From the NCBI GenBank assembly GCA_902626605.1, contig CACOFZ010000002.1, positions 89,586 through 153,585 of the forward strand: 64,000 nucleotides of DNA, read 5' to 3'. The notes beneath the pieces were generated by a model that was given only the letters and a program-made list of their open reading frames with translations, made no database searches and was not told where the DNA came from. Shown here one piece after another: positions 6,003 through 38,294 of this stretch (position 1 is the first letter of the stretch; every line of letters begins with the position of its first letter). A program made the translations under genes and the position numbers. Source of the DNA: an uncultured PS1 clade bacterium (GTDB lineage: Bacteria; Pseudomonadota; Alphaproteobacteria; MED-G09).

Positions 6003-6820
6003 AAAATTTCTAAAAACATTCTTGCCGATGTAATTAATAAAAAAATAGCAAAAATATTTGTTAAAATTTTGTTATCTAATTTATCAGCTGACTTTGCGCC
6101 AATTGGTGCTGCATAAGAAGAAATTGGTGCAATTAAAAGTAATCCAATGATGTTTACATATCCCAAGGAGCCAAGTGGTAAGTTTTCATTATTCCAACCT
6201 GTTATAATAAAAAAAATAGTTCCTGGAATTGCCAAATAAAAACCAAGACCAGAGGCGGTTCCAACTGCTCTGTGAATAGTTTTACCATACAATTTCATCA
6301 AACTAACATTAAATGTACCACCACCAATTCCTAACATTGAGGACAAGGAGCCAACTGAAAAAGGTATTAAACTTCCAAAAAAACCTTCTGGAATATCATT
6401 ACCAAGTTTAAATTCCTGTTTATTAAAAAATAGATTTACCGAAACAAAAAAAGCTATAAAGGCAAAAATAAAAGTCAGCCAAAAACCTGAAATTAGTCCA
6501 GCTATTATTGCCCCAATAATTGAGCCTAATATTGTTGGTAAAAGCCATGACTTTAAAACACTATAATCAATATTATCATTTTCTTGGTGAGATTTATATG
6601 AGCGCCAACCTGTCGGGATTATAACAGCAAGTGATGTAGCCACGGAAATATGCATAACGACCTCTTGAGGAACACCAATTAGAGACAAAAAATGATACAA
6701 CACTGGTACTACTATTATACCTCCGCCAACACCTAATAAACCAGCTATAAAACCAGAAATAAAACCAGATAATGATATTACTAACGCAAAAGGGATTAAT
6801 GAAAAAAGATCATTACTCAT
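5999..6820 (-). CDS. TauE/SafE family sulfite/anion exporter (DUF81 membrane protein)
   Basis: 273 aa, polytopic. Duplicated GxGGG-containing helices (LLGVGGGIIVVPVL and MLGIGGGTFNVSLM) are typical of TauE/SafE. Confidence 0.7.
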   Translation of the reverse strand: MSNDLFSLIPFALVISLSGFISGFIAGLLGVGGGIIVVPVLYHFLSLIGVPQEVVMHISVATSLAVIIPTGWRSYKSHQENDNIDYSVLKSWLLPTILGSIIGAIIAGLISGFWLTFIFAFIAFFVSVNLFFNKQEFKLGNDIPEGFFGSLIPFSVGSLSSMLGIGGGTFNVSLMKLYGKTIHRAVGTASGLGFYLAIPGTIFFIITGWNNENLPLGSLGYVNIIGLLLIAPISSYAAPIGAKSADKLDNKILTNIFAIFLLITSARMFLEIF

Positions 6821-7815
6821 TAAGCAGCCTGATTTTGAATTGAAATAATCTGATCTAATGCTTCCTTCAAAACTTTTGGGTCGTCTCTTCTTCTTGGCGC
6901 TTCATGACTCAAATAACTTCTCCATAGTTTTGCTCCTCTACAACCATGAAATAAACCAAACATATTTTGTGTTACTATATTAATCGGAACGTTATTTTTT
7001 ACACAAATTTCTAGATAAGAAATCATTTCCTCAACAATCTCAATTCTTGATGGTAGCTTTTTATCATCGTTGAAGAAAATTTTATCAACATCTATAATAG
7101 AATATGGGTTTTCTTGAACAGCTCTTCCCAACATAACACCATCAAGTTCAATTCCCTTTGACTTAGAAATCTCTTTTTTACCCTCATAAGGACTTAAAAT
7201 GCCCCCATTTAAAACTATATTTAATTCAGGCCATTTTCTTTTTATCATTCTAACTATATCATAATCTAAGGGAGGAATTTCTCTGTTTTGCTTAGGATCT
7301 AAACCATCCAACATAGCTTTTCTAGCATGTATAATATAGGTTGAAACTCCAGTATTTTTGGTAGTTTCAACAAACTCCGTTAACATTTCATCAGGATTGT
7401 GATCATCAATACCTATTCTACACTTAATAGTTACTGGTATTTTTACTTTTTCTTTAATTCTCTCAACACATTCTGCAACTAATTTAGGATGAGCCATTAA
7501 GCAAACCCCAAAATTTCCAGCCTGAACTCTCTTAGATGGACAACCAATATTTAAATTAATTTCATCATAACCATATTGCTCTCCAATTAGAGCTGCCTTG
7601 GACAAAGTCAAGGGATCTGATCCAGCTAACTGGAGCGCTACAGGATGTTCAACTTCATCAAATCCTAACAAAAAATCTTTGTCACCATAGATTATTGAAT
7701 CGGCAACAACCATTTCAGTGTAAAGCCTCGCATATTTACTAAACTTTCTAAAAAAGAAACGACAATGTCGATTTGTGACATCAATCATAGGTGCGATACA
7801 AAACTTATGAGACAT
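6820..7815 (-). CDS. dusA: tRNA-dihydrouridine(20/20a) synthase DusA
   Basis: FCIAPMIDVTNRHCRFFFR matches the DusA N-terminal signature (APMLDWTDRHCRYFHR); TIM-barrel Dus core. Start set at ATG 7815 (preceded by AGGGAA). The track start at 7839 is a TTG. Confidence 0.85.
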   Translation of the reverse strand: MSHKFCIAPMIDVTNRHCRFFFRKFSKYARLYTEMVVADSIIYGDKDFLLGFDEVEHPVALQLAGSDPLTLSKAALIGEQYGYDEINLNIGCPSKRVQAGNFGVCLMAHPKLVAECVERIKEKVKIPVTIKCRIGIDDHNPDEMLTEFVETTKNTGVSTYIIHARKAMLDGLDPKQNREIPPLDYDIVRMIKRKWPELNIVLNGGILSPYEGKKEISKSKGIELDGVMLGRAVQENPYSIIDVDKIFFNDDKKLPSRIEIVEEMISYLEICVKNNVPINIVTQNMFGLFHGCRGAKLWRSYLSHEAPRRRDDPKVLKEALDQIISIQNQAA

Positions 7816-8024
7816 TTTTAAAAATTCCCTAATCCCCAATTAATAATATATTAATCATAATTCAAAAAAAATTGAAAAATTATAATCTCTATACTGTATT
7901 TCTTTAGTTAATAACAATAATTTATAGTATTAATTCAGTATAATAATTTAATTATTATATAAATTTTATATTAAGTTAATATATTTCAAATATTAAATAA
8001 TAAGCTTTTAAGAACAAATAATCC

Positions 8025-11000
8025 ATGAGGATCTATATGATTTACACAAAAAAACTAATGAAAATTTTAGCTTTTGCTTTTTTTACAATTTTTATAACGT
8101 CTATTTCTACTTCTGATATATCAGCTGAACAAACTACTGGGGTTATCAGAGGATCAGTGGTCGATGAGGCAGGTAATCCTATAACTGGAGCTTCTGTACA
8201 AATTCTTCATTCCCCATCTGGAAGTAAATCATCTACATCAACAGGTAATTCAGGGGCTTTCTACTCAAGAGGTTTAAGATTGGGAGGTCCATTCAAAATA
8301 ACTGTTACAAAGTCAGGGCAAATGTCTACAAAAAGTAATATTTATACAAGACTAGGAAGTGAAGCAAACCTATCATTTACTCTTGGGTCAGCTGGGGTCG
8401 AAGAAATTGTTGTCACAGCACAAGCTGTTGATTTTAAAGGTCTAGGAGTTGGTCCTGGTTCAACTTTTGATGCAGAAGATATTTCAACATTACCTTCAAT
8501 TGATCGTGATATCAAAGATATTGCTAAACTTGACCCCTTTGTGACCGTTAACAACAATGATCAACTCTCTTTTGCAGGAGGAATGCCAAGACTAATTGGT
8601 TTTATAATTGATGGTGTAAGCGCAAATGACTCTTATGGACTAAGTTCAAATGCCTATCCAACAAATAGAATGCCTCTGTCAATGGATGTCATAGATCAAG
8701 TTTCAGTTAAAATAGCAAATTTTGACGCTGAACTTGGTGAAGCATCAAGTGGTAATATCGTTCTTACAACAAAAGCAGGTACTAATGAGTTTCATGGATC
8801 ATTTACAATTGAGTCCTCTCAAACTAGCGGAAATGAGCCTTTTGGTAAAAAAGCAGATAACGCTGATCCTGATACAGAATTATTCTCAGTTGCTCTTCAA
8901 GGTCCAATTATAAAAGATAAACTTTTCTTCTCTTTTGGTTATGAAAAATATGAAGCTTCTGACCCAATTCAAATGCAGGCTTTTCAATCGGGATCAGTGA
9001 GTAAAGAGGAAGCTGACGCCGTTATTATGGCTGCTAAAGATATTATTGGCTATGATGCAGGATCGTATAATAAAGGTTTAGAAGAAGAAGATGAAAAAAC
9101 TTTTTTAAGATTTGATGCAAATATTACAGATAATCAGGCGTTAACATTAGAATATATTCATGTAGATGGATTTACAGAAAGTGCTTATTGGAATAGATCT
9201 TTTGGTCTTCCACTTTCAAGTAGTTGGTACAGAATTAATAAAGAGTACGAAACAATTAAATTTGAATTAAACTCAGATTGGTCGGATAACTTTTCAACCA
9301 AAATTATGTATTCTGACACAGATGTCATGAATCCGAATACCCCTGTTGGATCAACTTCAATTGGAGAAGTTGGTGTTGGTGTTACCTCAGGGGGAACTGT
9401 ATTTTTTGGACCTGATCAATATAGACATGCTAATGAAATTCAAACCAGTAGAAAACAATTTGAATTATCTGGATATTACGATGTAGGCAATCATGCGATT
9501 ACATTGGGTTATAAATCTATTGAAAATGACATGTTTAACATGTTTTCAAGGAATAGCTTAGGGGAATATGATTATAATTCTCTGGAAGATTTTATTTCTG
9601 GTAATTTAAGAGAACTTGATTATAGAAATGCTGATACAAATAATCCTAGAGATGCTGCCGGTCGTTTTAATATGGATTATACAATTATTTACTTACAAGA
9701 CACCTGGAGCATTAACTCTGATTTAACAGCAAGGATTGGTTTCCGTTATGAAGAAATAAGTCAAGATACAACACCTGAATATAATTCATTCTGGTTTAAC
9801 TGGACTGGAGATGAGTTTAGACCAGCACCTAGAAATGACGTAAACCTTGATGGTGAAGATATATTGATGCCTCGTTTTTCTTTAGATTGGCAAGCTAAAG
9901 ATAATATTCTTGTTACCTTTGGATATGGTGAATTCAGTGGAAATCTACCTCCTGTATGGTTTGGTGGGCCATATATTGATACAGGTTTAGGTCTTCCAGG
10001 TAATAAACTTAGAGCAAGGAGTAATAACTTACCTACCCCAGGAACTCCTGCAAGTTATCCTGGTGAAGCTGCCTTAGCTCTTGTTCAAAATCAAATTGGT
10101 GATACTGGTGGGTATACAGCTATGATGGATAAAGATTTTGGTATTCCCTCAATAACAAAAATGAGCCTGGGAATTGTTGCAGATTTAGATTCAGGTATCA
10201 CAATCAGAGCTAACTATATTTATATGGAAGAAGAAGATCCTGTTGGAGCATATATAGGTGGTTGTGATCCAAAAGGAAATGCAATAGCCGATAGCAGACC
10301 ATTATATGGTGGATGTAGCTATGTTGGATATTTAACAACCTTTAAAAATATCCAACCTGAAACAAATATATTTGGTATCTCTATGGAAAAATCTTTTGAT
10401 AATGGGTTAAACTTATATCTTGGCTATGCTCATACTGACAGAGAAATGGCTCACATGATGACAAGCTCTATTATTTTTTCAAGTGCTGTAAGAATGCCAA
10501 TTTTTGATCACCTAACGCCTGTAAATAGCCCTTCTCATTACGAGATTGAACACTCTTTTGATTATGCGCTTACATGGAAGGGAAATATTTTTGGGAACCT
10601 TGAAACTAGCATAGGCTTAAATGGATTTAGACAGTCTGGCAACCCCTTTAGTTATACATTCAGAGGGGATTTAAGTGGATATAGGACAGATGGAGAAAAT
10701 ATTGAATTACTCTATGTTCCATCTATTGATGACCCAAATGTACTTTACGCCGATGGATTTGATTTAGCTGCTTTTGAACAATTCCTTCAGGACTCTGGTT
10801 TATCAGCATATCGAGGTTCTGCAGTTCCTAGAAATAGCTTTAATAGCCCTTGGGCAGGAACTTTTGATTTAAGAATTGCACAGGAAATTCCTTCTGGTGG
10901 AGTTCCTGGAAAAGCGATTTTCTTTATCGATATAGAAAATGTTCTTAATCTTTTAAATTCTGATTGGGGAGGATTTGAAAATTATAGTGGCTCTACAACC

Positions 11001-11141
11001 AATTCTAGAGGAATTGTTGAGGCAGATGTGGATGAACAAGGTAGATATATATACAAAACATTTAAAGTTGATGGCCAACCTACTCAGAACATAGGTAAAT
11101 CAGTTTATCAAATTAAAGTTGGTCTCAAATATCAATTCTAA
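8025..11141 (+). CDS. TonB-dependent outer-membrane receptor with N-terminal carboxypeptidase-regulatory-like domain
   Basis: 1038 aa. Signal peptide (MKILAFAFFTIFITSISTSDISA). CarbopepD_reg-like segment (GVIRGSVVDEAGNPITGASVQIL). TonB box EEIVVTA. Long beta-barrel ending in the aromatic terminal residue (...KYQF). Alternative starts at 8037 or 8058. Confidence 0.85.
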   Translation: MRIYMIYTKKLMKILAFAFFTIFITSISTSDISAEQTTGVIRGSVVDEAGNPITGASVQILHSPSGSKSSTSTGNSGAFYSRGLRLGGPFKITVTKSGQMSTKSNIYTRLGSEANLSFTLGSAGVEEIVVTAQAVDFKGLGVGPGSTFDAEDISTLPSIDRDIKDIAKLDPFVTVNNNDQLSFAGGMPRLIGFIIDGVSANDSYGLSSNAYPTNRMPLSMDVIDQVSVKIANFDAELGEASSGNIVLTTKAGTNEFHGSFTIESSQTSGNEPFGKKADNADPDTELFSVALQGPIIKDKLFFSFGYEKYEASDPIQMQAFQSGSVSKEEADAVIMAAKDIIGYDAGSYNKGLEEEDEKTFLRFDANITDNQALTLEYIHVDGFTESAYWNRSFGLPLSSSWYRINKEYETIKFELNSDWSDNFSTKIMYSDTDVMNPNTPVGSTSIGEVGVGVTSGGTVFFGPDQYRHANEIQTSRKQFELSGYYDVGNHAITLGYKSIENDMFNMFSRNSLGEYDYNSLEDFISGNLRELDYRNADTNNPRDAAGRFNMDYTIIYLQDTWSINSDLTARIGFRYEEISQDTTPEYNSFWFNWTGDEFRPAPRNDVNLDGEDILMPRFSLDWQAKDNILVTFGYGEFSGNLPPVWFGGPYIDTGLGLPGNKLRARSNNLPTPGTPASYPGEAALALVQNQIGDTGGYTAMMDKDFGIPSITKMSLGIVADLDSGITIRANYIYMEEEDPVGAYIGGCDPKGNAIADSRPLYGGCSYVGYLTTFKNIQPETNIFGISMEKSFDNGLNLYLGYAHTDREMAHMMTSSIIFSSAVRMPIFDHLTPVNSPSHYEIEHSFDYALTWKGNIFGNLETSIGLNGFRQSGNPFSYTFRGDLSGYRTDGENIELLYVPSIDDPNVLYADGFDLAAFEQFLQDSGLSAYRGSAVPRNSFNSPWAGTFDLRIAQEIPSGGVPGKAIFFIDIENVLNLLNSDWGGFENYSGSTTNSRGIVEADVDEQGRYIYKTFKVDGQPTQNIGKSVYQIKVGLKYQF

Positions 11142-11157
11142 AATGATAAATAATCAG

Positions 11158-11188
11158 AAAAGGGCGCTATCTACTAGCGCCCTTTTTT
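11158..11188 (+). terminator. Rho-independent terminator (GC-rich 9-10 bp stem AAAGGGCGC...GCGCCCTTT followed by a T-tract)
   Basis: Read directly: gaaaagggcgctatctactagcgcccttttttca, 17 nt after the TBDR stop. The only strong GC hairpin plus U-tract in the window. Confidence 0.8.
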
Positions 11189-11201
11189 CATATAATAAAT
11201 T

Positions 11202-12275
11202 ATGGCTCAAATTAACTTAAAAAAAATAAATCGTAGAAAGTTTCTTTACGGTGGGGGTGTAATTCTTCTTTCATTTTTTCCCCTATTTAAAAGATTAAAA
11301 GCATCATCAAAAAATATTTTTAAAATTTCATGTGGATCATGTCTTTCACAAGAGAAGGATCAGCCAATCTGGAAGAGTATTCTAAGAGAAAAATCGGATG
11401 TGTTTATTTTTATGGGAGATAATGTTTATGGCGATAATAAAAATAATAGTGATTTAAATCTTTTAAAAAAGGCTTATAAAAAACAAAAAATAAAAATTCC
11501 TTTTAAAAGATTAAAAGAAACTAATGAAATTTTCTCGATTTGGGATGATCATGACTATGGAAAAAATGACGGTGGCAAAGAGTTTGAAAATAAAAAAGAA
11601 GCAAAAAAGCTTTTTTTAAAATTTTGGGAAATACCACCTGATGATAAAAGAAGAAATAGAGAAGGTTTATATTTTAGCAAAAAAAGAAATACTGAAATTG
11701 GGATAATTCAATTTATTTTCCTTGATACAAGATATTTTAGATCCGCTCTTAAGCTAACTGATAAAAAATGGGCACCAAAAAAAGAAAAGTACATAGCTGA
11801 TTATGATTCAAAAAAAACATATCTTGGATATAAACAGTGGAATTGGCTTAAAAAAGCTTTTAAAGAAAAATCAGATATCAAAATTCTAATATCAAGTATT
11901 CAGGTATTAGCTGAAGGACATGGTTTTGAAAAATGGGGAAATTTTCCATTAGAAAAAAGACGTCTTTATAATTTAATAGATGAAAATGATATTAATAAAC
12001 TTATTATTCTATCAGGAGACAGGCATAGAGCAGGTATATATAAGGATAGGACTAAAAATGGTAATGAATTATATGAACTTACATCTAGCTCTCTTAATCT
12101 AGCGGCTGGAAAATTATTTAAAGCAGTTGAAGAAGCTGGTCCAAATAGAATTGGACCAACTTATTTAATGGAAAATTATGGAACTCTTGAAATTAATAAT
12201 GATAAAAATATTAAATTATCCATAAAAGATTTAAATCAACAAACCCAGAATGAAATTAAAATAGACTTATCTTGA
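11202..12275 (+). CDS. PhoD-family (alkaline phosphatase D-like) metallophosphatase, Tat-secreted, catalytic domain only
   Basis: Twin-arginine signal NRRKFLYGGGV. Metallophosphatase motifs GDNVYGD, WDDHDYG and GDRHRAG match the PhoD pattern GDxIYxD / WDDHE / GDxH. 357 aa, shorter than canonical PhoD. Confidence 0.7.
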   Translation: MAQINLKKINRRKFLYGGGVILLSFFPLFKRLKASSKNIFKISCGSCLSQEKDQPIWKSILREKSDVFIFMGDNVYGDNKNNSDLNLLKKAYKKQKIKIPFKRLKETNEIFSIWDDHDYGKNDGGKEFENKKEAKKLFLKFWEIPPDDKRRNREGLYFSKKRNTEIGIIQFIFLDTRYFRSALKLTDKKWAPKKEKYIADYDSKKTYLGYKQWNWLKKAFKEKSDIKILISSIQVLAEGHGFEKWGNFPLEKRRLYNLIDENDINKLIILSGDRHRAGIYKDRTKNGNELYELTSSSLNLAAGKLFKAVEEAGPNRIGPTYLMENYGTLEINNDKNIKLSIKDLNQQTQNEIKIDLS

Positions 12276-13508: not shown

Positions 13509-14624
13509 TTAATTATTTTTTTCTTCTAGTTGTGTTACCAATTTATTTTTCCAAGAGGCTATACTGCCAAGAGAAAGACCAAGAACCTGACTTCTTCTGT
13601 AATAAAATTGAGTATCAGCCTCCCAAGTAAATCCAATACCTCCATGAGTTTGAATATTTTCCTGAGCAGCAAAATTAAATGCGTCAGTTGCAGCAACTCT
13701 TGAAGCTGCAGCTGCAATCTTTAAATCTGAACCATTATCATTCAACATCATTGCTCCATAATAACTATTTGACTTAGCTAGCTCAATTTTTATGTACATA
13801 TCAGCAAGCTTATGTTTTATAGCCTGATATGATCCGATTTGTCTTCCAAAAGCAAATCTATCTAGAGCATATTCTTTTGCCATGTTCAGGGATGCCTCAG
13901 CTCCACCAATTTGCTCAAAAGATATTAATACTGCAGCAATATCAAGTATCTGCTGAACATCACCCCACCCATCACCTGATGAATTCATGATTTCACTTAA
14001 TGCATTATTAAAAATGATTTCTGCATGATCTCTTGTTTGATCAAGAGTGGTAAGTGTCTTTTTCTCAATCCCTTCTGTTGATAAATCAACTATTGACATT
14101 CCTATTGAGTCTGAGGTTTTGTCTTTTACAACTGCAACACAAATATCTGCATAACTACCGTCAGGAACAGGCATTTTTGTTCCTGTTAATTTTCCTGAAG
14201 AAAAAGTACATTGTATATTGTCAGGATTAGGTTCCATAGCGCTCTCAGGTAATGCAAAAGTTGCAATTATTTCGCCTGAAGCTAGTTTAGGAAGATAATT
14301 TTCTTTTTGTTTATCAGTACCAAATAATTTAATTGCCTCAGTAGCAAGATAAACAGATGAAGAAAATGGCACCGGAGCAGATGCTCTTCCAAGCTCTTCT
14401 GCAATCACGCATAATTCTAATGGACTTAACCCAAGGCCTCCATATTCCTCTGGAATTGTTGTACCAGTTAAACCTAAGTCAACTAGCCCTCTCCAAACTT
14501 TATCAGAATAATTTTTATCACTCTCCAAAATTTCTCTTACCACATCAATTGAACAATTGTCAGAAAGAAATTTTGCAACTTGTTCTTTTAATAGTTTTTG
14601 GTCCTCAGAAAAATCAAAATTCAT
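13509..14624 (-). CDS. Acyl-CoA dehydrogenase family protein (paralog of the neighbour)
   Basis: 371 aa ACAD fold. C-terminal ...YYRRSQVLGLSLGS lacks the YEGT Glu. Confidence 0.8.
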   Translation of the reverse strand: MNFDFSEDQKLLKEQVAKFLSDNCSIDVVREILESDKNYSDKVWRGLVDLGLTGTTIPEEYGGLGLSPLELCVIAEELGRASAPVPFSSSVYLATEAIKLFGTDKQKENYLPKLASGEIIATFALPESAMEPNPDNIQCTFSSGKLTGTKMPVPDGSYADICVAVVKDKTSDSIGMSIVDLSTEGIEKKTLTTLDQTRDHAEIIFNNALSEIMNSSGDGWGDVQQILDIAAVLISFEQIGGAEASLNMAKEYALDRFAFGRQIGSYQAIKHKLADMYIKIELAKSNSYYGAMMLNDNGSDLKIAAAASRVAATDAFNFAAQENIQTHGGIGFTWEADTQFYYRRSQVLGLSLGSIASWKNKLVTQLEEKNN

Positions 14625-14681
14625 AATTATTAACCCTTAAAAAAATATTAACTTAAACAAAAAAGAATAAAATAGCAAAAC

Positions 14682-16034
14682 CTAGAAAAGACAATTTTCA
14701 AAAACTTTCATTACATTTTCATCCCAATCATTATTAAACTCTCTAATTAGTTTATCAGCAGGGCTTTCATTATTAATAACAATATCTTCCAAGTACTGAA
14801 GATAGATACTTTCATCACATTCTTTTTTATTTAACTTATTTCTTCTTTTAAGACCTTCTTTTGATAACTTTATAGAATCTAAAGCTAATTTATATATATT
14901 ATTTTTCCCGACTGAACAATTTAAACCCTCTTTAGGTACTTTATTTCTAAACTCAATAAGTTCCTCAACTGAAATATTTTTTGTTAATTCCAAAGCATCA
15001 CTTAAAGCCTGATTATCATAAATTAAACCAACCCAATAAGCTGATATAGCGCAAATATGATCAATATTTCCTGCATCTGCTCCACGCATCTCAATATAAT
15101 TTTTAAGTCTTGCTTCTGGAAAAATAGTTGTTAAATGAAGTTCCCAATCATCAATTGTAGCATCGTAATTTTTTACGCTATCAATTTTTTTATCCATAAA
15201 ATCTCTGAAAGATTTTCCAGCTAGATCAATATATTTTCCATTTCTATTAATAAAATACATTGGAACATCAAGGGCATAATCAACATATTTTTCATAACTC
15301 ATATTATCATCAAAAACAAATGGAAGGATACCAGTTCTATCTTGATCAGTATTCTTCCAGTATTCACTTCTAATTGACTTATAACCATTTAGTGATCCAT
15401 CATTAAATGGTGAATTTGCAAATAAAGCAGTAGCAATTGGTTGTAATAAAAAAGATAATCTGAATTTTTTTATCATATCTTTTTCGTCTGAATAATCTAA
15501 ATTAACTTGTGCGGTACTTGAACGAAGCATCATATCCAGGCCGTGGTTACCAACTTTTGGCATATAATTTTTCATTACTTTATATCTGCTTTTTGGCATA
15601 ATAGGCATATCCTCTCTTGACCAATTTGCTGCAAATCCAAGTGCTAAAAAATCAATACCTATATTTTTTGTAATTTTTGATATTTGATTCTTATGATTTA
15701 ATAATTCATCGTGTGTTTCGTGAATTGTATTTAGCATTGCACCTGAAAGCTCGAATTGTCCTGCAGGTTCTAACGTGATTGAACCACCGCCTATTTCATT
15801 AGCCCTAGATAATGCGATAATATTATTGTTCTCGTAAATAGGATCCCAACCAAAGTCAACCAACTTCAAAAGAAGATCGGAAATACCACCTTCTTCTTCA
15901 TAGAAAACTGGTTTCTTATCTTTTAATTTAAATGCAAATTTCTCGTGTTCGGTTCCTATTTTAAAATCTTTAATTATTTTTTCACCAGAACTAATGAAAT
16001 CTATAAGTTGATTTTTTGACTCAATTTTTTCCAT
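14682..16034 (-). CDS. gshA: Glutamate--cysteine ligase, plant/alphaproteobacterial type (GCS2 family)
   Basis: 450 aa. Strong similarity pattern to plant-type gamma-glutamylcysteine synthetase (GTEHEKFAF..., RSEYW, EMRGADAG). Confidence 0.85.
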   Translation of the reverse strand: MEKIESKNQLIDFISSGEKIIKDFKIGTEHEKFAFKLKDKKPVFYEEEGGISDLLLKLVDFGWDPIYENNNIIALSRANEIGGGSITLEPAGQFELSGAMLNTIHETHDELLNHKNQISKITKNIGIDFLALGFAANWSREDMPIMPKSRYKVMKNYMPKVGNHGLDMMLRSSTAQVNLDYSDEKDMIKKFRLSFLLQPIATALFANSPFNDGSLNGYKSIRSEYWKNTDQDRTGILPFVFDDNMSYEKYVDYALDVPMYFINRNGKYIDLAGKSFRDFMDKKIDSVKNYDATIDDWELHLTTIFPEARLKNYIEMRGADAGNIDHICAISAYWVGLIYDNQALSDALELTKNISVEELIEFRNKVPKEGLNCSVGKNNIYKLALDSIKLSKEGLKRRNKLNKKECDESIYLQYLEDIVINNESPADKLIREFNNDWDENVMKVFENCLF

Positions 16035-16065
16035 TATGTTTTTTAATTAATTTTAATTGATAAAT

Positions 16066-16809
16066 CTATACCCAATCTCCCAAAATTGAATGGAATATTG
16101 ATAATGCGCTAACAATAGCAGTATCAGATCTTAAAACTCTCTGACCCAGAGAAATTACACAAAGATCAGAAATTTTATTAATTTTTTTTCTTTCTTCATC
16201 ACTAAAACCACCCTCAGGGCCAATAAGCAGTGCCCATTTTTCGTTTTTATTTATTTTTTTTATTTCATTTAATTTCTTAAGAGGTTTGACCTTAGATAAT
16301 TCATCACAGAAAATTAATGTCCTGTTTGGAGCAATTTCATTCCATTTCTCAATAATATTATCAAGTTTTTCAATTTTATTTACTTTTGGAACAAATGTTG
16401 AACCACATTGTTCAGCTGCTTCTATAGCATTTGATAATATTCTAGACTCTTTAATTGACTTATTTTGAGTTCTTTCTGTTATTACAGGCCAAATCAATTG
16501 AGATCCAAGTTCAGTAATTTTTTGTGAAATAAAATCTATTCTTGCATTTTTTACAGGTGCAAAAAAAATCCATATATCACATGGTTCTTTTTTAAAGCCT
16601 ATTTTTTTTTCTATTTTTACTTTTGATTTTTTCTTATTTAAATCCTCAATTAATACCGTCCACTCGCCATCAGTTTCATTAAAAATATTCAGTTTATCTC
16701 CTGTTTTTAGTCGCATTACATTTTTCAAATAATGAGATATCTTGTTATCCAAATAAATAAAATCTGTGGATAGTTTTTCTTTAACATAAACTCTAATATT
16801 ATTTTTCAT
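16066..16809 (-). CDS. rsmE: 16S rRNA (uracil1498-N3)-methyltransferase RsmE
   Basis: 247 aa. N-terminal PUA-like segment (HYLKNVMRLKTGDKLNIF) and C-terminal SPOUT motif LLIGPEGGFSDEE. Confidence 0.75.
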   Translation of the reverse strand: MKNNIRVYVKEKLSTDFIYLDNKISHYLKNVMRLKTGDKLNIFNETDGEWTVLIEDLNKKKSKVKIEKKIGFKKEPCDIWIFFAPVKNARIDFISQKITELGSQLIWPVITERTQNKSIKESRILSNAIEAAEQCGSTFVPKVNKIEKLDNIIEKWNEIAPNRTLIFCDELSKVKPLKKLNEIKKINKNEKWALLIGPEGGFSDEERKKINKISDLCVISLGQRVLRSDTAIVSALSIFHSILGDWV

Positions 16810-16880
16810 TTAACTTTAATAATACAATAAAATATTCCTCTTAAGTTTTTATATATTAACAGATATAATTTAGAAAAAAA

Positions 16881-18974: not shown

Positions 18975-19580
18975 CTAATCTAACCCCAACATCTTGTTAA
19001 TGGGTGAAAATGACTTTCTGTGATATTTACATGGTCCATAAATTTGAAGAGCATTACGATGCTCTTTAGTTCCATAACCTTTATTCTTCTTCCAATTATA
19101 ATTTGGAAATTCCTTATCAATTTTTGACATCAAATTATCTCTAGTAACTTTTGCAATAATTGATGCTGCCGCTATGGAAAGAGAAATACTATCACCCTTA
19201 ACTATACATTCTGTATGATGATCAAAGCCTGGATTTGAATTGCCATCAACTAAAACAATATCTACCGAACAATCTAAATTATTTAATGCCCTTTTCATAG
19301 AAAGGAATGTCGCTTGTAAAATATTCAAACTATCAATTTCCTCAATGCTTGAAATACCCACCCCTACAAAATGAGAATCATAAATTGACGAATAAAGTGA
19401 TTTTTTTCTTTTCTCAGAAACTTTTTTTGAATCATCTAGATCACTTGGAATATTCTTTTTATCTAAAACTACAGCTGCTGAAACAACTGGACCAGCCCAA
19501 GGACCTCTCCCAGCCTCATCTACTCCTACAATAGATTTGTATGGCCAACCAAAATCTTTCTCAATTGAGAGATTTGGCAC
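18975..19580 (-). CDS. rnhB: Ribonuclease HII
   Basis: GVDEAGRGPWAGPVVSAAVVL catalytic motif; 200-211 aa. Track ORF begins at GTG 19610 inside gcvPB. An in-frame GTG at 19580-19578 overlaps the gcvPB TAG stop by 1 nt (TAGTG) and leaves a typical 19 residues before GVDEAGRG. Confidence 0.85.
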   Translation of the reverse strand: MPNLSIEKDFGWPYKSIVGVDEAGRGPWAGPVVSAAVVLDKKNIPSDLDDSKKVSEKRKKSLYSSIYDSHFVGVGISSIEEIDSLNILQATFLSMKRALNNLDCSVDIVLVDGNSNPGFDHHTECIVKGDSISLSIAAASIIAKVTRDNLMSKIDKEFPNYNWKKNKGYGTKEHRNALQIYGPCKYHRKSFSPINKMLGLD

Positions 19581-21070
19581 TAAATTGCTATAAGCGGCTC
19601 TTCTTTCCACCTTAAAACCGGCTTTCTTGCAGCCTGTGTCTCGTCTAATCTTCTTATTGGAGTAAATACAGGCGCCGCTTTAAATGAGTCAGAGTCTTTT
19701 TTTAATCTCTCAACCAAATCACACAATGTTTTAATAAAATGATCTAATGATTGTTTGGATTCAGTTTCTGTTGGTTCAACCAATAGGGCTCCATGAATAA
19801 CCAAAGGAAAATATATTGTCATAGGATGATAACCTTCATCAATCATAGCTTTTGCAAAGTCTAGCGTTTCTACCCCTGTATCTTTGAGAAAATCGTCACT
19901 GAACAATATTTCATGCATACAAAATCCATCAAATGCGGGTGTTAAATGTGAGCTAAGAGAAGCTCTTAAATAATTCGCGTTTAAAACAGCATCCTCAGAA
20001 ACTTGTCTTAATCCATCAGCGCCATGACTTAGCATATAAGACATTGCTCTTACAAACATACCCATTTGGCCATGAAATACATTTAATCTTCCAAAAGACT
20101 TTTTAAGATCTTTTTCGTTTGAGTCTTCTACTAAAATAAAATCACCTTTTATATTTTTAACTAATGGGGTTGGACAAAATTTTTCTAACCTATTAGAAAA
20201 AACTACAGGACCAGAGCCTGGTCCTCCACCCCCATGAGGTGTTGAAAAAGTTTTATGCAGATTGATATGCATTGCATCAATTCCAAGGTCACCTGGTTTT
20301 AATTTGCCAACAACAGCATTAAAATTTGCTCCATCACAGTATAAATAACCACCTGATTTATGTGTTAATTCTGAAATTTTAACAATGTCAGTTTCGAATA
20401 ATCCACAGGTATTTGGATTGGTAATCATTACGCCAGCAAAATTTTCATCAATATTATTCTTAAAATCACTAAAATCTATAAGGCCCTTTTCATTTGATTT
20501 TATTGTCTTAACTTCAAATCCTAAAAAGGCAGCGGTAGCAGGATTAGTTCCATGCGCCGAGTCAGGAACCAAAACAACTTTTCTATTTAGCTCATTTCTA
20601 TCTAATAAAGCTTGCTTGATAGCCATCATCCCACATAATTCTCCTTGAGCGCCAGCTTTAGGTGTCATCGTTACAGCAGTCATTCCTGTTAGCTCCTTCA
20701 ACCATGATGAAATTAAATTAATTAATTCTAAAGCGCCTTGGCATGTAGATATTGGTTGCAATGGATGAATTTCAGAAAAACCTTCAAGTCTAGCCATCTT
20801 TTCATTAAGCCTAGGGTTATGCTTCATTGTACATGAGCCTAAAGGATACAAGCCTGCATCAATCGAATAGTTTTTTCTTGAAAGCCTAACATAATGCCTA
20901 ATAGTTTCTGGCTCACTTAAACCTACCAAACCTATCTCATTATCAGAAAAACTATCACCAATCATATGACTTAAATTATCTAGTTCAGCTAAATCAACAC
21001 CTGTTTTATCTATGTTTCCAACCTCAAAAAGAAGTTGCTCATCATGATCAAGACCTTTATTTTTATTCAT
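19580..21070 (-). CDS. gcvPB: Glycine dehydrogenase (decarboxylating) subunit 2 (P-protein C-terminal half)
   Basis: 496 aa with the PLP-lysine region (NLHKTFSTPHGGGGPG). Follows gcvPA with an ATGAATAA overlap. Confidence 0.92.
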   Translation of the reverse strand: MNKNKGLDHDEQLLFEVGNIDKTGVDLAELDNLSHMIGDSFSDNEIGLVGLSEPETIRHYVRLSRKNYSIDAGLYPLGSCTMKHNPRLNEKMARLEGFSEIHPLQPISTCQGALELINLISSWLKELTGMTAVTMTPKAGAQGELCGMMAIKQALLDRNELNRKVVLVPDSAHGTNPATAAFLGFEVKTIKSNEKGLIDFSDFKNNIDENFAGVMITNPNTCGLFETDIVKISELTHKSGGYLYCDGANFNAVVGKLKPGDLGIDAMHINLHKTFSTPHGGGGPGSGPVVFSNRLEKFCPTPLVKNIKGDFILVEDSNEKDLKKSFGRLNVFHGQMGMFVRAMSYMLSHGADGLRQVSEDAVLNANYLRASLSSHLTPAFDGFCMHEILFSDDFLKDTGVETLDFAKAMIDEGYHPMTIYFPLVIHGALLVEPTETESKQSLDHFIKTLCDLVERLKKDSDSFKAAPVFTPIRRLDETQAARKPVLRWKEEPLIAI

Positions 21071-22427
21071 AACAAACCTCCTTAGCTAATTTAATAAAAT
21101 CATCTCTATCAAAATCTGAGTTAATTTCTGAAGAAGCAACAAGTAATAGATTTGAAAAATCGCCCTCTTGGTTTGATAGCCTAGATACAGGAACTCCCGC
21201 TAAAATTCCTTTTTCAGCCATTTTTTCAACAAAGACTGATGCATCAATAGGAAGCTTAACGGTAAACTCATTAAAGAAAGAATTATTTTTGACTTCAAAA
21301 CCATCTAAAGTTTTTAATTTATTGTAGAGTTTAATAGCTGCTTCGTGGTTTAATTTAGATAACTTCTTAAAGCCCATTTCTCCTAACAAACTTAAATGGA
21401 TTGTAAAAGCTAAGCTACATAAACCAGAATTAGTACAAATGTTTGATGTAGCTTTTTCTCTTCGAATATGTTGTTCCCTTGTAGCTAGAGTTAAAACAAA
21501 ACCTTTTTCTCCATTCATATCTTTTGTTTCGCCAACTATTCTTCCTGGAAGCTGTCTAACATATTTGTCTTTGGTCGACATTAAGCCAATATATGGACCA
21601 CCAAAATTGAGTGGATTTCCTAGAGATTGACCCTCGCATGCAACAATATCAGCACCCATCTCTCCAGGGCTTTTCATCATTCCAAGCGATATAATTTCAT
21701 TAACAACCACAATTAAAAGAGCTCCCTTAGAGTGAGTATACTCTGCTAATTGCTCTAGAGAATGACAAGAACCAAAGAAATCAGGATTTTGAACAACTAC
21801 ACAGGAAACACTATCGTCAATTTTAGAAATTAATTTTTCAACTTCAAAATTTTCTGAAAACTCATAATCAATCTCATCTTCATTAGAGCTAATTAATGTA
21901 TTAATTACTTCTGCATATTGAGGATGTAGTGTTGGAGATATAACTACCTTATTTCTTTTAGTAATTCTTTTTGCCATTGATACTGCTTCTGCTGTTGAAG
22001 TAGATCCGTCATACATAGATGCATTAGAAACATCCATTCCTGTAATAAGAGAGACCTGGGTTTGAAATTCAAAGAGATATTGAAGAGTGCCTTGAGAGAT
22101 CTCAGGTTGATAAGGGGTATAAGATGTCAGGAATTCAGAACGCTGAATTATATGATCAACAGTAGCGGGAATATGATGCTTATAAGCTCCTGCTCCTAAA
22201 AAAAATGGTACTTCATTGGAGTTAATATTTTTATTGGCAATCTCAGATAAAATTTTTCCTACTTCCATTTCAGTTTTATGGCTTGGTAAATTAAATTTTG
22301 GATCCAATGAAACTTCTTTTGGAACATTGGTAAACATTTCATTAATGTCACTTATACCAATGACCTTTTTCATATTCTCTCTGTCATTATTTGTTAAGGG
22401 TAAATATCTCATTTCTTTATACTCCAA
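21063..22427 (-). CDS. gcvPA: Glycine dehydrogenase (decarboxylating) subunit 1 (P-protein N-terminal half)
   Basis: 454 aa with typical GcvPA start MRYLPLT(N)NDRENM and conserved core. Overlaps gcvH by 11 nt. Confidence 0.92.
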   Translation of the reverse strand: MEYKEMRYLPLTNNDRENMKKVIGISDINEMFTNVPKEVSLDPKFNLPSHKTEMEVGKILSEIANKNINSNEVPFFLGAGAYKHHIPATVDHIIQRSEFLTSYTPYQPEISQGTLQYLFEFQTQVSLITGMDVSNASMYDGSTSTAEAVSMAKRITKRNKVVISPTLHPQYAEVINTLISSNEDEIDYEFSENFEVEKLISKIDDSVSCVVVQNPDFFGSCHSLEQLAEYTHSKGALLIVVVNEIISLGMMKSPGEMGADIVACEGQSLGNPLNFGGPYIGLMSTKDKYVRQLPGRIVGETKDMNGEKGFVLTLATREQHIRREKATSNICTNSGLCSLAFTIHLSLLGEMGFKKLSKLNHEAAIKLYNKLKTLDGFEVKNNSFFNEFTVKLPIDASVFVEKMAEKGILAGVPVSRLSNQEGDFSNLLLVASSEINSDFDRDDFIKLAKEVCYE

Positions 22428-22788
22428 TTAATTTCTTGTATTCTTCTTCACTCATTAAATTTTTAAGCTCATCTTTGTTCTTTATAGTTATTTTATATAA
22501 CCACCCTCTTTCTTGAGGATCTTCATTAATAATTTCAGGTTTTTCTTCCAATGATGAATTAGTTTCAAAAATTTCTCCAGAAGCAGGAGAATAGATTTCA
22601 CTTGCCGCTTTGACGGACTCAATTACCGCAACATCTTTTCCTTGATCAAAAGAATTACCTTTTTCTGGTAATTCAACGAAAACAATATCTCCTAATTGTT
22701 CGCTTGCATAAGATGTAATTCCAACAACACCCTCATCGCCATTAACTTTTATCCATTCATGATCTTTTGTATAAAAAATATCTGTCAT
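22417..22788 (-). CDS. gcvH: Glycine cleavage system H protein
   Basis: 123 aa. Lipoyl-lysine motif ESVKAAS (K in VKAASE) and the GcvH fold. Confidence 0.92.
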   Translation of the reverse strand: MTDIFYTKDHEWIKVNGDEGVVGITSYASEQLGDIVFVELPEKGNSFDQGKDVAVIESVKAASEIYSPASGEIFETNSSLEEKPEIINEDPQERGWLYKITIKNKDELKNLMSEEEYKKLIGV

Positions 22789-23919
22789 TCACTTTTTCCT
22801 TTTAAAATAATTATGAGGAACAAAAGGCAGCTTTATAATATCTGCTGGTATTTTTTTTCCACGAATATTTAAAAAAACTTCTTTTTCATTTCTAAAAGAA
22901 GAAGTTATATAACCCATAGATATTGGTACTCCTAAAGAAGGAGAAAAACCTCCACTTGTTACCTCACCAATTAACTTATTACTAGCATCGTATATTAGAG
23001 TACCCTCTCTAGCAGGAGCCCTTCCTTTAGGAAGAAAACCTAATAAATTTTTTTTAGGTCCTTCTATATATTCATTTGCAATAGCTTCGCCGCCAATAAA
23101 ATCTTGCTTATCAACTCTATCCTTACATATCGACCATTTTAGGCCAGCCTCGATAGGATTTTTTTCTATATTTATATCGTGTCCATATAAACAAAGACCC
23201 GCTTCCAATCTGAGCGAATCTCTTGCTCCAAGCCCTGCTAATTTAACATCGTTATTTTTTAAAAGCTCTTCAGTAAATGTAACAACGTGCTTATTAGGTA
23301 TAGAGATTTCAAAACCATCCTCTCCAGTATAACCGCATCTTGATATTAAGATTTCATAATTTTTATACCTAAACCAAATACTAGACATAAATTCCATCCC
23401 TTTAATTTTAGGAATTAAATCTACTAATATTTTTTCTGATTTTGGACCTTGTAAAGCTATTAATGAAAGATCATTTCTAACGTTAATATTAAATTTTTTG
23501 TTTAAATTATCTCTTAGATGATTAATATCTTTTTGTTTACAAGCAGCATTCACAACAAGCCAAACGCTATTTTCATCTCTAGTTTTATGAACCATTAAAT
23601 CATCTATTATTTTTCCTTCATGGTTTAAAAATTGAGTATATTTTATTTTTCCTGGAGCTAGCTTAGAAAAAGATATCGGAAGAATTTTTTCAAGCGCTTC
23701 CATAACAAAAGGACCATTTATTTCAATTTGCCCCATATGAGAAACATCAAATATGCTTGCTTTTGATCTAGTATGATTATGCTCAGCAATAATTCCTGAA
23801 GAATAATTTATAGGAAGATAGTAACCTCCGAATGGAACTATTTTAGCATTATTTTTGTTATGAAAATCAAAAAGAGAGGTTTTCTCAATAGAAATATTTT
23901 CATTTATTAATTCAGACAT
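22789..23919 (-). CDS. gcvT: Aminomethyltransferase (glycine cleavage system T protein)
   Basis: 376 aa GcvT fold (SLFDVSHMGQIEI, ISRCGYTGEDGFEISI). Immediately downstream of the glycine riboswitch. Confidence 0.92.
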   Translation of the reverse strand: MSELINENISIEKTSLFDFHNKNNAKIVPFGGYYLPINYSSGIIAEHNHTRSKASIFDVSHMGQIEINGPFVMEALEKILPISFSKLAPGKIKYTQFLNHEGKIIDDLMVHKTRDENSVWLVVNAACKQKDINHLRDNLNKKFNINVRNDLSLIALQGPKSEKILVDLIPKIKGMEFMSSIWFRYKNYEILISRCGYTGEDGFEISIPNKHVVTFTEELLKNNDVKLAGLGARDSLRLEAGLCLYGHDINIEKNPIEAGLKWSICKDRVDKQDFIGGEAIANEYIEGPKKNLLGFLPKGRAPAREGTLIYDASNKLIGEVTSGGFSPSLGVPISMGYITSSFRNEKEVFLNIRGKKIPADIIKLPFVPHNYFKRKK

Positions 23920-23939: not shown

Positions 23940-24126
23940 AAGGCTTTTAAGCCTGCCCTCCTCTGTCGTTGGAACCTGAGAGATTTCGTATAATTAAATA
24001 CTTACCCCGTGGGTGAAATCAGATGATTTTCTTTCCAGAGTTAAATATTTCTGCGGTCCTTTTGCCTGAGAGTTTCCGAGGGCGGTTGCTCCTTCGGCGC
24101 TAAACTAAGTCTCTCCCGCAGAGACA
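23940..24126 (-). promoter_or_regulatory. Tandem glycine riboswitch (two aptamers plus expression-platform hairpin) in the gcvT leader
   Basis: Minus strand read directly. Aptamer 1: CUCUGCGGGAGAGAC...GCGCCGAAGGAGCAACCGCCC...ACUCUCAGGCAAAAGGACCGCAGA. Aptamer 2: CUCUGGAAAG...CACCCACGGGGUAAG...UCUCUCAGGUUCCAACGACAGAGGAGGG. Both fit the glycine aptamer consensus (CUCUGGAGAG / ACCGAAGGGGCAA / CUCUCAGGCAAAAGGACAG). The hairpin AGGCUUAAAAGCCU plus U-rich tail precedes the SD AAGGAG and the ATG at 23919. Confidence 0.9.
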
Positions 24127-24167
24127 TTTTTATATTATATTGATTCTTTACAATGTCATTTTTTATA

Positions 24168-24620
24168 TTATTTTTGGATACCAATCAATACTTTGTATGA
24201 AGATCCTGTTCTTCCTTCCAAAATATCTGACCTTAGATTTTCTATCGCGATGCTGAAAGAGGTTATTTTTCTATTTTTAACTTTTACAATATTATTTTTT
24301 GACCACTTATCAATCACAACATCGTTAGGTCCAATAAAAGCAATAAATAAAGGAATTTGTATTGTATCAACTGATAATTGATCTTGATTAATAATATCGC
24401 CAATAACCCCCACATTAAAATCTATTTTTTTTCTTTTAACATTATAGTCGCAAATCATTACAGTTCTATTCAACTCTATATTTAAACCATTAAACATGCT
24501 TGTTTCTGACCCAGACATTATAGCTGCTCTCGGACATGCCCCCGGATCAAACTCAAAATCTGAAGAGCTACACGATGAAATTAAAGCAACAACAAATATT
24601 GTATAGATAAATTTTATCAT
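24168..24620 (-). CDS. Hypothetical lipoprotein (lipobox LISSC, signal peptide)
   Basis: 150 aa, MIKFIYTIFVVALISSC|SSS. No recognisable enzymatic motif. Co-oriented with and immediately upstream of the glycine riboswitch. Confidence 0.55.
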   Translation of the reverse strand: MIKFIYTIFVVALISSCSSSDFEFDPGACPRAAIMSGSETSMFNGLNIELNRTVMICDYNVKRKKIDFNVGVIGDIINQDQLSVDTIQIPLFIAFIGPNDVVIDKWSKNNIVKVKNRKITSFSIAIENLRSDILEGRTGSSYKVLIGIQK

Positions 24621-38039: not shown

Positions 38040-38294
38040 CTATATTTCGTCTAATGGTTCAGAGCTAAAATCACCATCAGGGTGAGAAATGATTTTGTCG
38101 ATCTTCATCTGTGCAGTTTTAAGTTTATCTTCACAATGTGCTTTTAAAATTACTCCTTTTTCGTAAATAGATATTGAATCCTCCAATTCTATATCACCTC
38201 TTTCTAAATTTTCTACGATTTGTTCAAGCTCGGATAAAGCTTCTTCAAAGGACAATTTTTTAATTTCATCAGTTATTTTTAATTTTTTATTCAT
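38040..38294 (-). CDS. xseB: Exodeoxyribonuclease VII small subunit
   Basis: 84 aa with LSFEEALSELEQIVENLERGDIELEDSISIYEKG matching the XseB helical hairpin. Confidence 0.85.
   Translation of the reverse strand: MNKKLKITDEIKKLSFEEALSELEQIVENLERGDIELEDSISIYEKGVILKAHCEDKLKTAQMKIDKIISHPDGDFSSEPLDEI

Follow-up and report, generated by a model that had tools for sequence, protein, structure and literature searches.

A predicted Oar-type TonB-dependent transporter gene and its terminator in a marine alphaproteobacterium of the OCS116/PS1 clade

Among the TonB-dependent outer-membrane transporters (TBDTs, also called TonB-dependent receptors, TBDRs), those of the Oar subclass are defined by a CarboxypepD_reg N-terminal extension placed ahead of the plug (PMC6434023). 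The Oar protein of Myxococcus xanthus is needed for the secretion of the protease PopC, a role known for that Oar only (PMC6434023). In Caulobacter, TBDRs are found under PhoB control (PMC11208175), and Flavobacterium possesses inorganic phosphate (Pi)-induced TBDTs together with periplasmic phosphatases and Pus loci, as well as an orphan TBDT, Fjoh_3841, which is annotated with pf13620 only (PMC8115612). The present work concerns the gene of a predicted Oar-type TBDT, hereafter the receptor, in a 64,000-nucleotide stretch of DNA from an uncultured PS1 clade bacterium (GenBank assembly GCA_902626605.1, contig CACOFZ010000002.1, positions 89,586 to 153,585); this whole stretch is referred to as the window. 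The gene is in all likelihood a vertically inherited, clade-wide Oar-type TBDT gene that forms its own terminator-bounded transcription unit.

The receptor gene and its terminator

The unit comprises two features:
8037..11141, + strand: TBDT of the Oar subclass, 1034 aa (Pfam, alignment A2, AlphaFold2 model, Foldseek)
11158..11188, + strand: intrinsic terminator (fold energy, junction scan, conservation in relatives)

The terminator is the best-supported part of the finding. It begins 17 nt past the receptor stop codon TAA and consists of the hairpin AAAAGGGCGCTA-TCTAC-TAGCGCCCTTTT followed by TT, that is, a 12-bp stem (an 8-bp G/C-rich core and 4 A-U pairs; 6 G-C pairs), a 5-nt loop and a T6-7 tract. 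The initial annotation had described a GC-rich hairpin and T-tract at this very place and had called it exceptional in the window, and both statements hold. With a fold energy of -20.8 kcal/mol (z = -5.9 against shuffles), it surpasses in stability every other hairpin at the 58 gene junctions, followed by one of -15.9 kcal/mol in the leader of a glycine riboswitch and one of -11.2 kcal/mol. Matches resembling terminators are about as frequent elsewhere in the window as in shuffles and are mostly intragenic. The surrounding gene layout is as compact as had been reported, with a median junction of 11.5 bp and with convergent genes that abut, 11 of the 11 convergent junctions measuring at most 5 bp or overlapping.

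The structure is kept in relatives. Related loci, designated by L-numbers, were compared with the window; they include 20 OCS116/PS1 genome loci, in which gene order was read within the limits of each contig. In 20/20 of these loci, the receptor gene is followed by a stable hairpin, with energies of -16.6 to -23.8 kcal/mol. In an alignment of 18 terminator sequences, 94.4% of the cells are paired, compared with 36-72% in controls in which the 3′ arm was slid, and compensatory changes are present at two pairs, one of which goes from G-C to A-U in five sequences and the other from C-G to U-A in two. An A4 tract stands 5′ of the stem in the window and an A-tract is found there in most loci, so that the terminator is potentially bidirectional and may also stop antisense transcription from a convergent acyl-CoA dehydrogenase operon, which overlaps the end of the downstream PhoD-like gene (described below) and has no terminator of its own. 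Some relatives carry a second TBDR gene of 763 codons, which ends in its own strong hairpin and a T8 tract; the sequences thus suggest that receptor genes are those provided with terminators in these genomes.

The receptor open reading frame (ORF) as called from the letters (8025..11141, + strand) is real, with a corrected start. In the closest relatives (L001, L002 and L018), an in-frame stop follows the upstream ATG and the receptor proteins start MIYT..., and the receptor start is therefore placed at ATG 8037, 5-6 nt downstream of the sequence GAGG. The resulting product has 1034 aa, the length of nearly all receptor orthologs, and not the 1038 aa first proposed; the rest of that proposal, a TBDR with a CarboxypepD_reg domain, a TonB box and a barrel, is upheld by Pfam, sequence and fold. 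A signal peptide, read by eye from the sequence, occupies aa 1-30 (MIYTKKLMKILAFAFFTIFITSISTSDISA, cleaved between ISA and EQTTG), and the junction between A and EQTTG is conserved in all receptor orthologs. CarboxypepD_reg (PF13620) follows at aa 37-116 with 54.9 bits (Pfam cut-off 32.3), and then the TonB box EEIVVTA at aa 122-128 (nt 8400-8420), which is also present in the A2 consensus. Farther downstream, OMP_b-brl_4 is matched with 100 bits (Pfam), and the protein ends in ...VGLKYQF, a C-terminal aromatic residue or beta-signal whose F1034 is invariant in A2.

A search of the receptor sequence against the PDB gave no match, and a fold search was used instead. The AlphaFold2 (AF2) model, built from 17 homologs, has a predicted local distance difference test score (pLDDT) of 63 and a predicted template modelling score (pTM) of 0.65. 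The TonB box sits in a low-pLDDT linker of the model, as expected, and DSSP assigns 22 strands of at least 9 residues between aa 253 and 1033, after the plug. Foldseek returned 318 PDB matches at E <= 1e-3, and all 50 that were listed are TBDTs, the top ones being YddB, FusA, PirA and FepA, down to E = 1.7e-27; the match to the whole TBDT fold spans about 950-1000 columns. Judged from sequence and model, the receptor gene is thus predicted to encode a TBDT of the Oar subclass with a signal peptide, a CarboxypepD_reg extension, a TonB box, a plug and a 22-strand barrel.

The receptor gene is probably also highly expressed, by analogy with the OCS116 genus AG-430-B22, for which TBDRs are counted among the abundant transcript functions in situ (PMC13096325) and to which one of the related loci, L008, belongs. 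The strong hairpin behind the second TBDR gene of relatives points the same way.

Several points weigh against this picture of a highly expressed Oar-type transporter. The match of the receptor to Plug (PF07715) is sub-threshold (E = 0.09; 13.7 bits against a cut-off of 23.9); it is near full-length, covering profile positions 10-105 of 107 at aa 142-239, and the receptor homologs P0117 and P0119 have recorded Plug matches. At a pLDDT of 63, the AF2 model is of moderate confidence only. Neither a tonB nor an exbBD gene is present in the 64-kb window. The published metatranscriptome leaves open which TBDR is the abundant one (PMC13096325), and the promoter, 5′ end, termination efficiency and expression level of the receptor gene are all inferred.

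In the proposed mechanism, transcription of the receptor gene would start within the 221-bp AT-rich spacer that it shares with the divergent gene dusA and would stop at the Rho-independent terminator behind its stop codon. The terminator would shield the PhoD-like gene, which lies 60 bp downstream, from a receptor gene that is probably heavily transcribed, and it might also block antisense read-through from the convergent operon. Judging from family membership, the Sec-exported receptor would insert in the outer membrane, TonB-ExbBD would pull its TonB box, and a scarce or bulky substrate would be imported through the plugged 22-strand barrel. The weakest step is the substrate, which could be an organophosphate too large for porins that the Tat-exported PhoD-like esterase would hydrolyze in the periplasm or, alternatively, some other dissolved-organic-matter compound.

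Base composition, gene order and descent

The initial annotation had taken the receptor gene, by eye, to be clearly richer in guanine and cytosine (GC) than its neighbors (about 40% against 15-30%) and had suggested that it may be a laterally acquired or lineage-specific gene in a streamlined Pelagibacterales genome. In support of lateral acquisition, 1-kb windows over the receptor gene have 34-36.5% GC, compared with 29.2% upstream and 27.2% downstream, and the gene has an unusually long upstream spacer and a terminator of its own. However, gene by gene, the receptor has 35.3% GC against a mean of 31.1% (standard deviation 3.4; z = 1.25), which ranks it 8th among the 58 genes of the window, and its GC at third codon positions (GC3) is average (19.1% against 18.3%; z = 0.3). 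The visual contrast arises mostly because the flanks, namely the spacer and the PhoD-like gene (26.7% GC), are very AT-rich, and other 1-kb windows of the stretch attain 36.6-37.4% GC. The excess is located at second codon positions (GC2, 3rd of the 58 genes) and follows from a Gly/Thr/Ser-rich, Lys-poor protein composition. Gly, Thr, Ser, Tyr and Phe are over-represented in the receptor protein and Lys, Leu, Ile and Glu under-represented, a bias to be expected of a beta-barrel; its amino acids combined with window-average codon choice predict 34.6% GC, compared with the 35.3% observed, and its synonymous-codon deviation (chi-square per codon) is the lowest of the 58 genes. The modest GC elevation follows from the make-up of a beta-barrel protein and does not point to a foreign origin.

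The host is not a member of the Pelagibacterales either. All genomes with receptor orthologs at 76-97% amino-acid identity carry the label OCS116 cluster, PS1 clade, Rhodobiaceae or Hyphomicrobiales, and the window DNA is about 92% identical to the Rhodobiaceae metagenome-assembled genome (MAG) CPC93 (L001) and 87-88% identical to the OCS116 single-cell genomes AG-390-A19 and AG-390-I16; related genomes have 32-35% GC. Ortholog distribution and DNA identity thus assign the window to OCS116/PS1. The accompanying remark that TBDRs are rare or absent in SAR11 is correct in itself, Ca. P. ubique having 0 TBDTs (PMC3400609), but is not applicable to an OCS116/PS1 genome.

Gene order around the receptor is kept in 20/20 related OCS116/PS1 loci, the longer of which read PGM, TauE, dusA / TBDR, PhoD-like / acyl-CoA dehydrogenase (ACAD), ACAD and onward. 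To the distant subclade, the receptor is about 77% identical, compared with 57-62% for dusA and TauE and 55-57% for the PhoD-like protein. Over the receptor gene, a sliding comparison of nucleotide identity with the nearest relative stays level at 91-95%. In the same comparison, an apparently replaced segment of 2.3 kb (about 14.5-16.85 kb) falls to about 60%, so the method would have revealed a foreign segment at the receptor. The window contains no tRNA, and no integrase or transposase is found among its 56 Pfam-scanned ORFs. In an exhaustive HMMER search, all receptor orthologs fell into one 50%-identity cluster that is exclusive to OCS116/PS1; the closest representatives beyond it are 35-37% identical, with 646 clusters at E <= 1e-30. 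On sequence evidence, the receptor is accordingly a clade-restricted ortholog in a very large known family, lineage-specific yet ancestral to the clade, which bears out one half of the initial proposal. The other half falls: with typical GC3, codon usage and amino-acid-corrected GC, with syntenic orthologs in all 20 loci and with flat identity, lateral acquisition is ruled out and keeps next to no probability. Gene-level GC and codon usage like those of the neighbors, together with syntenic orthologs across the clade, are moreover the very observations that the initial annotation had named as telling against its own suggestion. The receptor gene is an ordinary, vertically inherited gene of an OCS116/PS1 marine alphaproteobacterium (host about 31% GC).

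The segment at 14,500-16,850 deserves a separate description. It covers the genes of a GCS2-type glutamate-cysteine ligase and an RsmE-like methyltransferase (14682..16034 and 16066..16809, both on the - strand), where identity to L001 and L018 declines from about 92% and 88%, respectively, to about 60% before it recovers. The two proteins are 44-55% identical to those of their own subclade and 60-68% identical to those of most distant-subclade loci, and the segment looks like an allelic replacement through recombination with a divergent lineage, which is the kind of event that had been suspected for the receptor.

Flanking spacer and neighboring genes

The features on both sides of the receptor unit are the following:
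6820..7815, - strand: dusA (tRNA dihydrouridine synthase), divergent upstream neighbor (Pfam Dus, 243 bits)
7816..8036, no strand: noncoding spacer of 221 bp, about 13% GC, between the divergent dusA and receptor starts (sequence)
7887..7938, no strand: block CTCTATACTGTATTTCTTTAGTTAATAACAATAATTTATAGTATTAATTCAG, conserved in the subclade of the window only (alignment A1, columns 99-150)
11191..11196, + strand: TATAAT hexamer 5 nt upstream of the PhoD-like ATG (sequence, alignment A3)
11202..12275, + strand: PhoD-like metallophosphoesterase, short form, 357 aa (Pfam PhoD, PF09423, 64 bits against a cut-off of 27)

The start of dusA is ATG 7815 and not TTG 7839, since the N-terminus MSHKFCIAPM matches the N-termini of homologs. 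The long AT-rich region shared with divergent dusA that the initial annotation had pointed out is therefore confirmed, with a length of 221 bp in place of 185 bp. It is the second-longest noncoding spacer in the window, after a 248-bp riboswitch leader; a seemingly longest gap of 281 bp is not counted because it contains an 84-aa ORF (38040-38294, - strand), upstream of the polyprenyl synthetase and dxs genes, whose product we take to resemble the small subunit of exonuclease VII (xseB).

The spacer presumably holds the promoters of both dusA and the receptor gene. It is conserved blockwise within subclades, and the block at 7887-7938, shared by the window, L001, L002, L018, L003 and L015, may serve dusA and/or the receptor gene as promoter or operator. 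The earlier statement that the leader holds no recognizable Fur, Pho or riboswitch element is in agreement with the searches. Rfam gave nothing at gathering thresholds, and at E <= 10 only chance-level matches on 7700-8150; RNA folding of the leader found no significant structure (z = 0.09). Consensus sequences for Fur, PhoB, Irr, RirA, Zur, LexA, CRP and Fnr had no consistent match above shuffles in 10 orthologous leaders, the PhoB consensus, which is of the E. coli type and may not be the clade's own Pho box, scoring at shuffle level in 9 of the 10 with L003 as the sole exception. De novo 12- or 16-mers common to the leaders of both subclades scored within the null, and a sigma-70 promoter scan of the spacer yielded 2 matches where 3.4 are expected by chance. 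Motifs picked out of the leader by eye, namely TTnACAA-N4-TTCATAA direct repeats and TATGATA...TAGTTTAAT, were set aside, since AT-rich sequence yields such motifs by chance.

The slot between dusA and the receptor varies among relatives. One subclade holds there the extra 763-aa TBDR mentioned above, a classical one with Plug and TonB_dep_Rec domains (L005 7444-9735; L007, L008, L010, L012, L013, L036 and L037), and another subclade holds a 144-aa cupin gene on the opposite strand (L017 8282-8716; L011 and L014). Remnants of the 763-aa TBDR and of the cupin were sought in the window and none was found.

On the other side, the PhoD-like gene lies 60 bp downstream of the receptor on the same strand and adjoins it in 29/29 receptor-bearing OCS116/PS1-type loci (20 genome and 9 metagenome loci). 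The PhoD-like protein carries the twin-arginine (Tat) motif NRRKFL, and its GDNVYGD, WDDHDYG.NDGG, GHG and SGDRH motifs are invariant, leaving the catalytic and metal-ligand motifs intact. Its AF2 model has a pLDDT of 78, and its best PDB match is PhoD 2yeq_A (Foldseek, E = 4e-13). It consists of the catalytic domain alone, with no PhoD_N domain, and scores 31 bits with NCBIfam AlkPhosPhoDBac, for which the cut-off is 1000. Directly after the terminator T-tract, about 14 of 18 relatives have a -10-like hexamer (TATAAT, TATAGT or TATAAA) 5-6 nt ahead of the PhoD-like start codon, compared with a background of 7 of the 58 window genes having such a hexamer in that position. This hexamer and the lack of a Shine-Dalgarno sequence suggest that the PhoD-like gene may have its own promoter and a leaderless or near-leaderless mRNA.

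Elsewhere in the window, a glycine riboswitch aptamer (RF00504, 63 bits; 24044-24128, - strand) lies in the 248-bp leader of the gcvT-gcvH-gcvP1-gcvP2 operon (19580-23919), and it is the single glycine riboswitch aptamer that Rfam reports in that leader. Between this leader and ispH (LytB), a 150-aa ORF (24168-24620, - strand) is without a Pfam match at E <= 1e-5. Between mraZ and a GST gene lies an RNase P RNA of bacterial class A (319 bits; 2486-2837, - strand).

Substrate, direction of transport and known systems

Both the substrate and the direction of transport of the receptor are inferred. The single likeliest specific hypothesis on the substrate, itself a tentative one, couples the receptor with its downstream neighbor: the receptor would import organophosphates (nucleic-acid or phospholipid-derived diesters, other phosphorus polymers) from which the Tat-exported PhoD-like esterase would free phosphate in the periplasm, and the locus would be a counterpart, in the alphaproteobacteria, of Pho-regulated TBDRs and Pus loci. 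The same-strand adjacency at 60 bp in every receptor-bearing locus of the clade points in this direction, as do the Tat motif, the invariant catalytic motifs and the PhoD fold match of the neighbor. Precedents exist in the PhoB-controlled TBDRs of Caulobacter (PMC11208175) and the Pi-induced TBDTs of Flavobacterium (PMC8115612). Two of six distant Oar-type homologs are also found in phosphorus contexts, P0118 adjoining a phosphonate ATP-binding cassette (ABC) transporter, Porin_O_P and a PstS-like gene, and P0119 adjoining a metallophosphoesterase and a His_Phos_1 gene, the former unrelated in sequence to the PhoD-like protein of the window. Nevertheless, several findings speak against the phosphorus link. 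Between the two genes stands a strong, conserved terminator, a separate -10 element may serve the PhoD-like gene, and no Pho box rises above shuffles in the leader. The adjacency carries little weight because the whole 20-kb region is syntenic in the clade, and the receptor is much better conserved than the PhoD-like protein (about 77% against 55-57% to the distant subclade). Outside the clade, in a comparison that included 80 metagenome loci and in which only non-clade short-PhoD loci with large neighboring ORFs count, a TBDR lies near a short PhoD in one lineage only (L027/L059), and that TBDR is of an unrelated type with no sequence similarity to the window receptor. Of the remaining distant homologs, two adjoin polyamine genes of the agmatine deiminase/N-carbamoylputrescine amidase type and one a sulfotransferase gene, the context of the last being uninformative. 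No gene of a SusD/PusD-like lipoprotein is present at the receptor locus, the immediate neighbors being dusA and the PhoD-like gene.

If the receptor served instead for the uptake of iron or another metal, as a receptor for a siderophore, haem or a small iron protein in the manner of FusA or YddB, its top Foldseek matches (YddB, FusA and catecholate siderophore receptors) and the classic role of TBDTs in iron uptake would be accounted for. This reading is nonetheless improbable: the leader has no Fur, Irr or RirA box above shuffles, the receptor lacks an STN domain, its neighbors are housekeeping genes and none is of the siderophore ABC or FecIR type, a ranking of TBDTs obtained from a pLDDT-63 model at 11-12% identity is uninformative on substrate, and the Oar subclass is without siderophore association (PMC6434023). 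The receptor could also be imagined to export rather than import, releasing the Tat-exported PhoD-like enzyme to the cell surface or the medium as Myxococcus Oar does with PopC, since its architecture is Oar-like (CarboxypepD_reg extension, TonB box, predicted plug and large barrel) and the adjoining gene codes for a predicted exported enzyme. Export is, however, very unlikely here, as one Oar-type TBDT only is known to export, the receptor is distant from the wider Oar class (about 35% at best), and the arguments against a link between receptor and PhoD-like protein apply equally. Doubtful as it is, the import version of the pair is much likelier than the export version.

Among the distant relatives themselves, two Oar-type homologs from Hyphomonas-like genomes (L021 9259-11101 and L110 8344-10264) are about 33% identical to the receptor, and behind both of them come PAD_porph (agmatine deiminase-type) and CN_hydrolase genes. 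The recurrence of this arrangement could be a hint that the substrate of that branch is related to nitrogen or polyamines.

The apparent oddities of the receptor locus are hence ordinary: the GC content comes from barrel composition, the leader is a divergent promoter spacer, and the lone terminator fits a gene that is probably highly transcribed in a compact genome. The receptor gene ranks with the better-conserved ones of its neighborhood, in an ocean clade that is abundant yet little studied, and if the link to the PhoD-like protein were true, it would represent a route for organophosphate use in oligotrophic alphaproteobacteria.

Compared with known systems, the terminator has the G/C-rich core stem, A-U extension, 5-nt loop and T-tract of canonical Rho-independent terminators, which include bidirectional A-tract/U-tract types, and is unusual only as a near-lone junction hairpin in a compact genome. 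The PhoD-like protein differs from Bacillus subtilis PhoD (2yeq) in its 357 aa, its lack of PhoD_N and its score far under the NCBIfam equivalog cut-off; it has the same Pfam PhoD domain, Tat signal and metallophosphatase motifs, and 2yeq is its closest structure. In contrast to the Pus loci, the receptor locus has no SusD/PusD partner and no detectable Pho box, and a terminator stands between its two genes; as in the PhoB regulon of Caulobacter and PusCD of Flavobacterium, an outer-membrane TBDT gene lies beside that of an exported phosphoesterase in an organism of phosphorus-poor water, and the pf13620-only annotation of Fjoh_3841 parallels the window receptor. Unlike the setting of Myxococcus xanthus Oar (MXAN_1450; PF13620 and PF25183), no ton gene cluster or PopC-like protease is found near the receptor, whose closest non-clade relatives are only about 35% identical. 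With that Oar, the receptor shares a signal peptide, a CarboxypepD_reg domain before the TonB box, a predicted plug and a very large barrel (about 1000 aa or more; PMC6434023).

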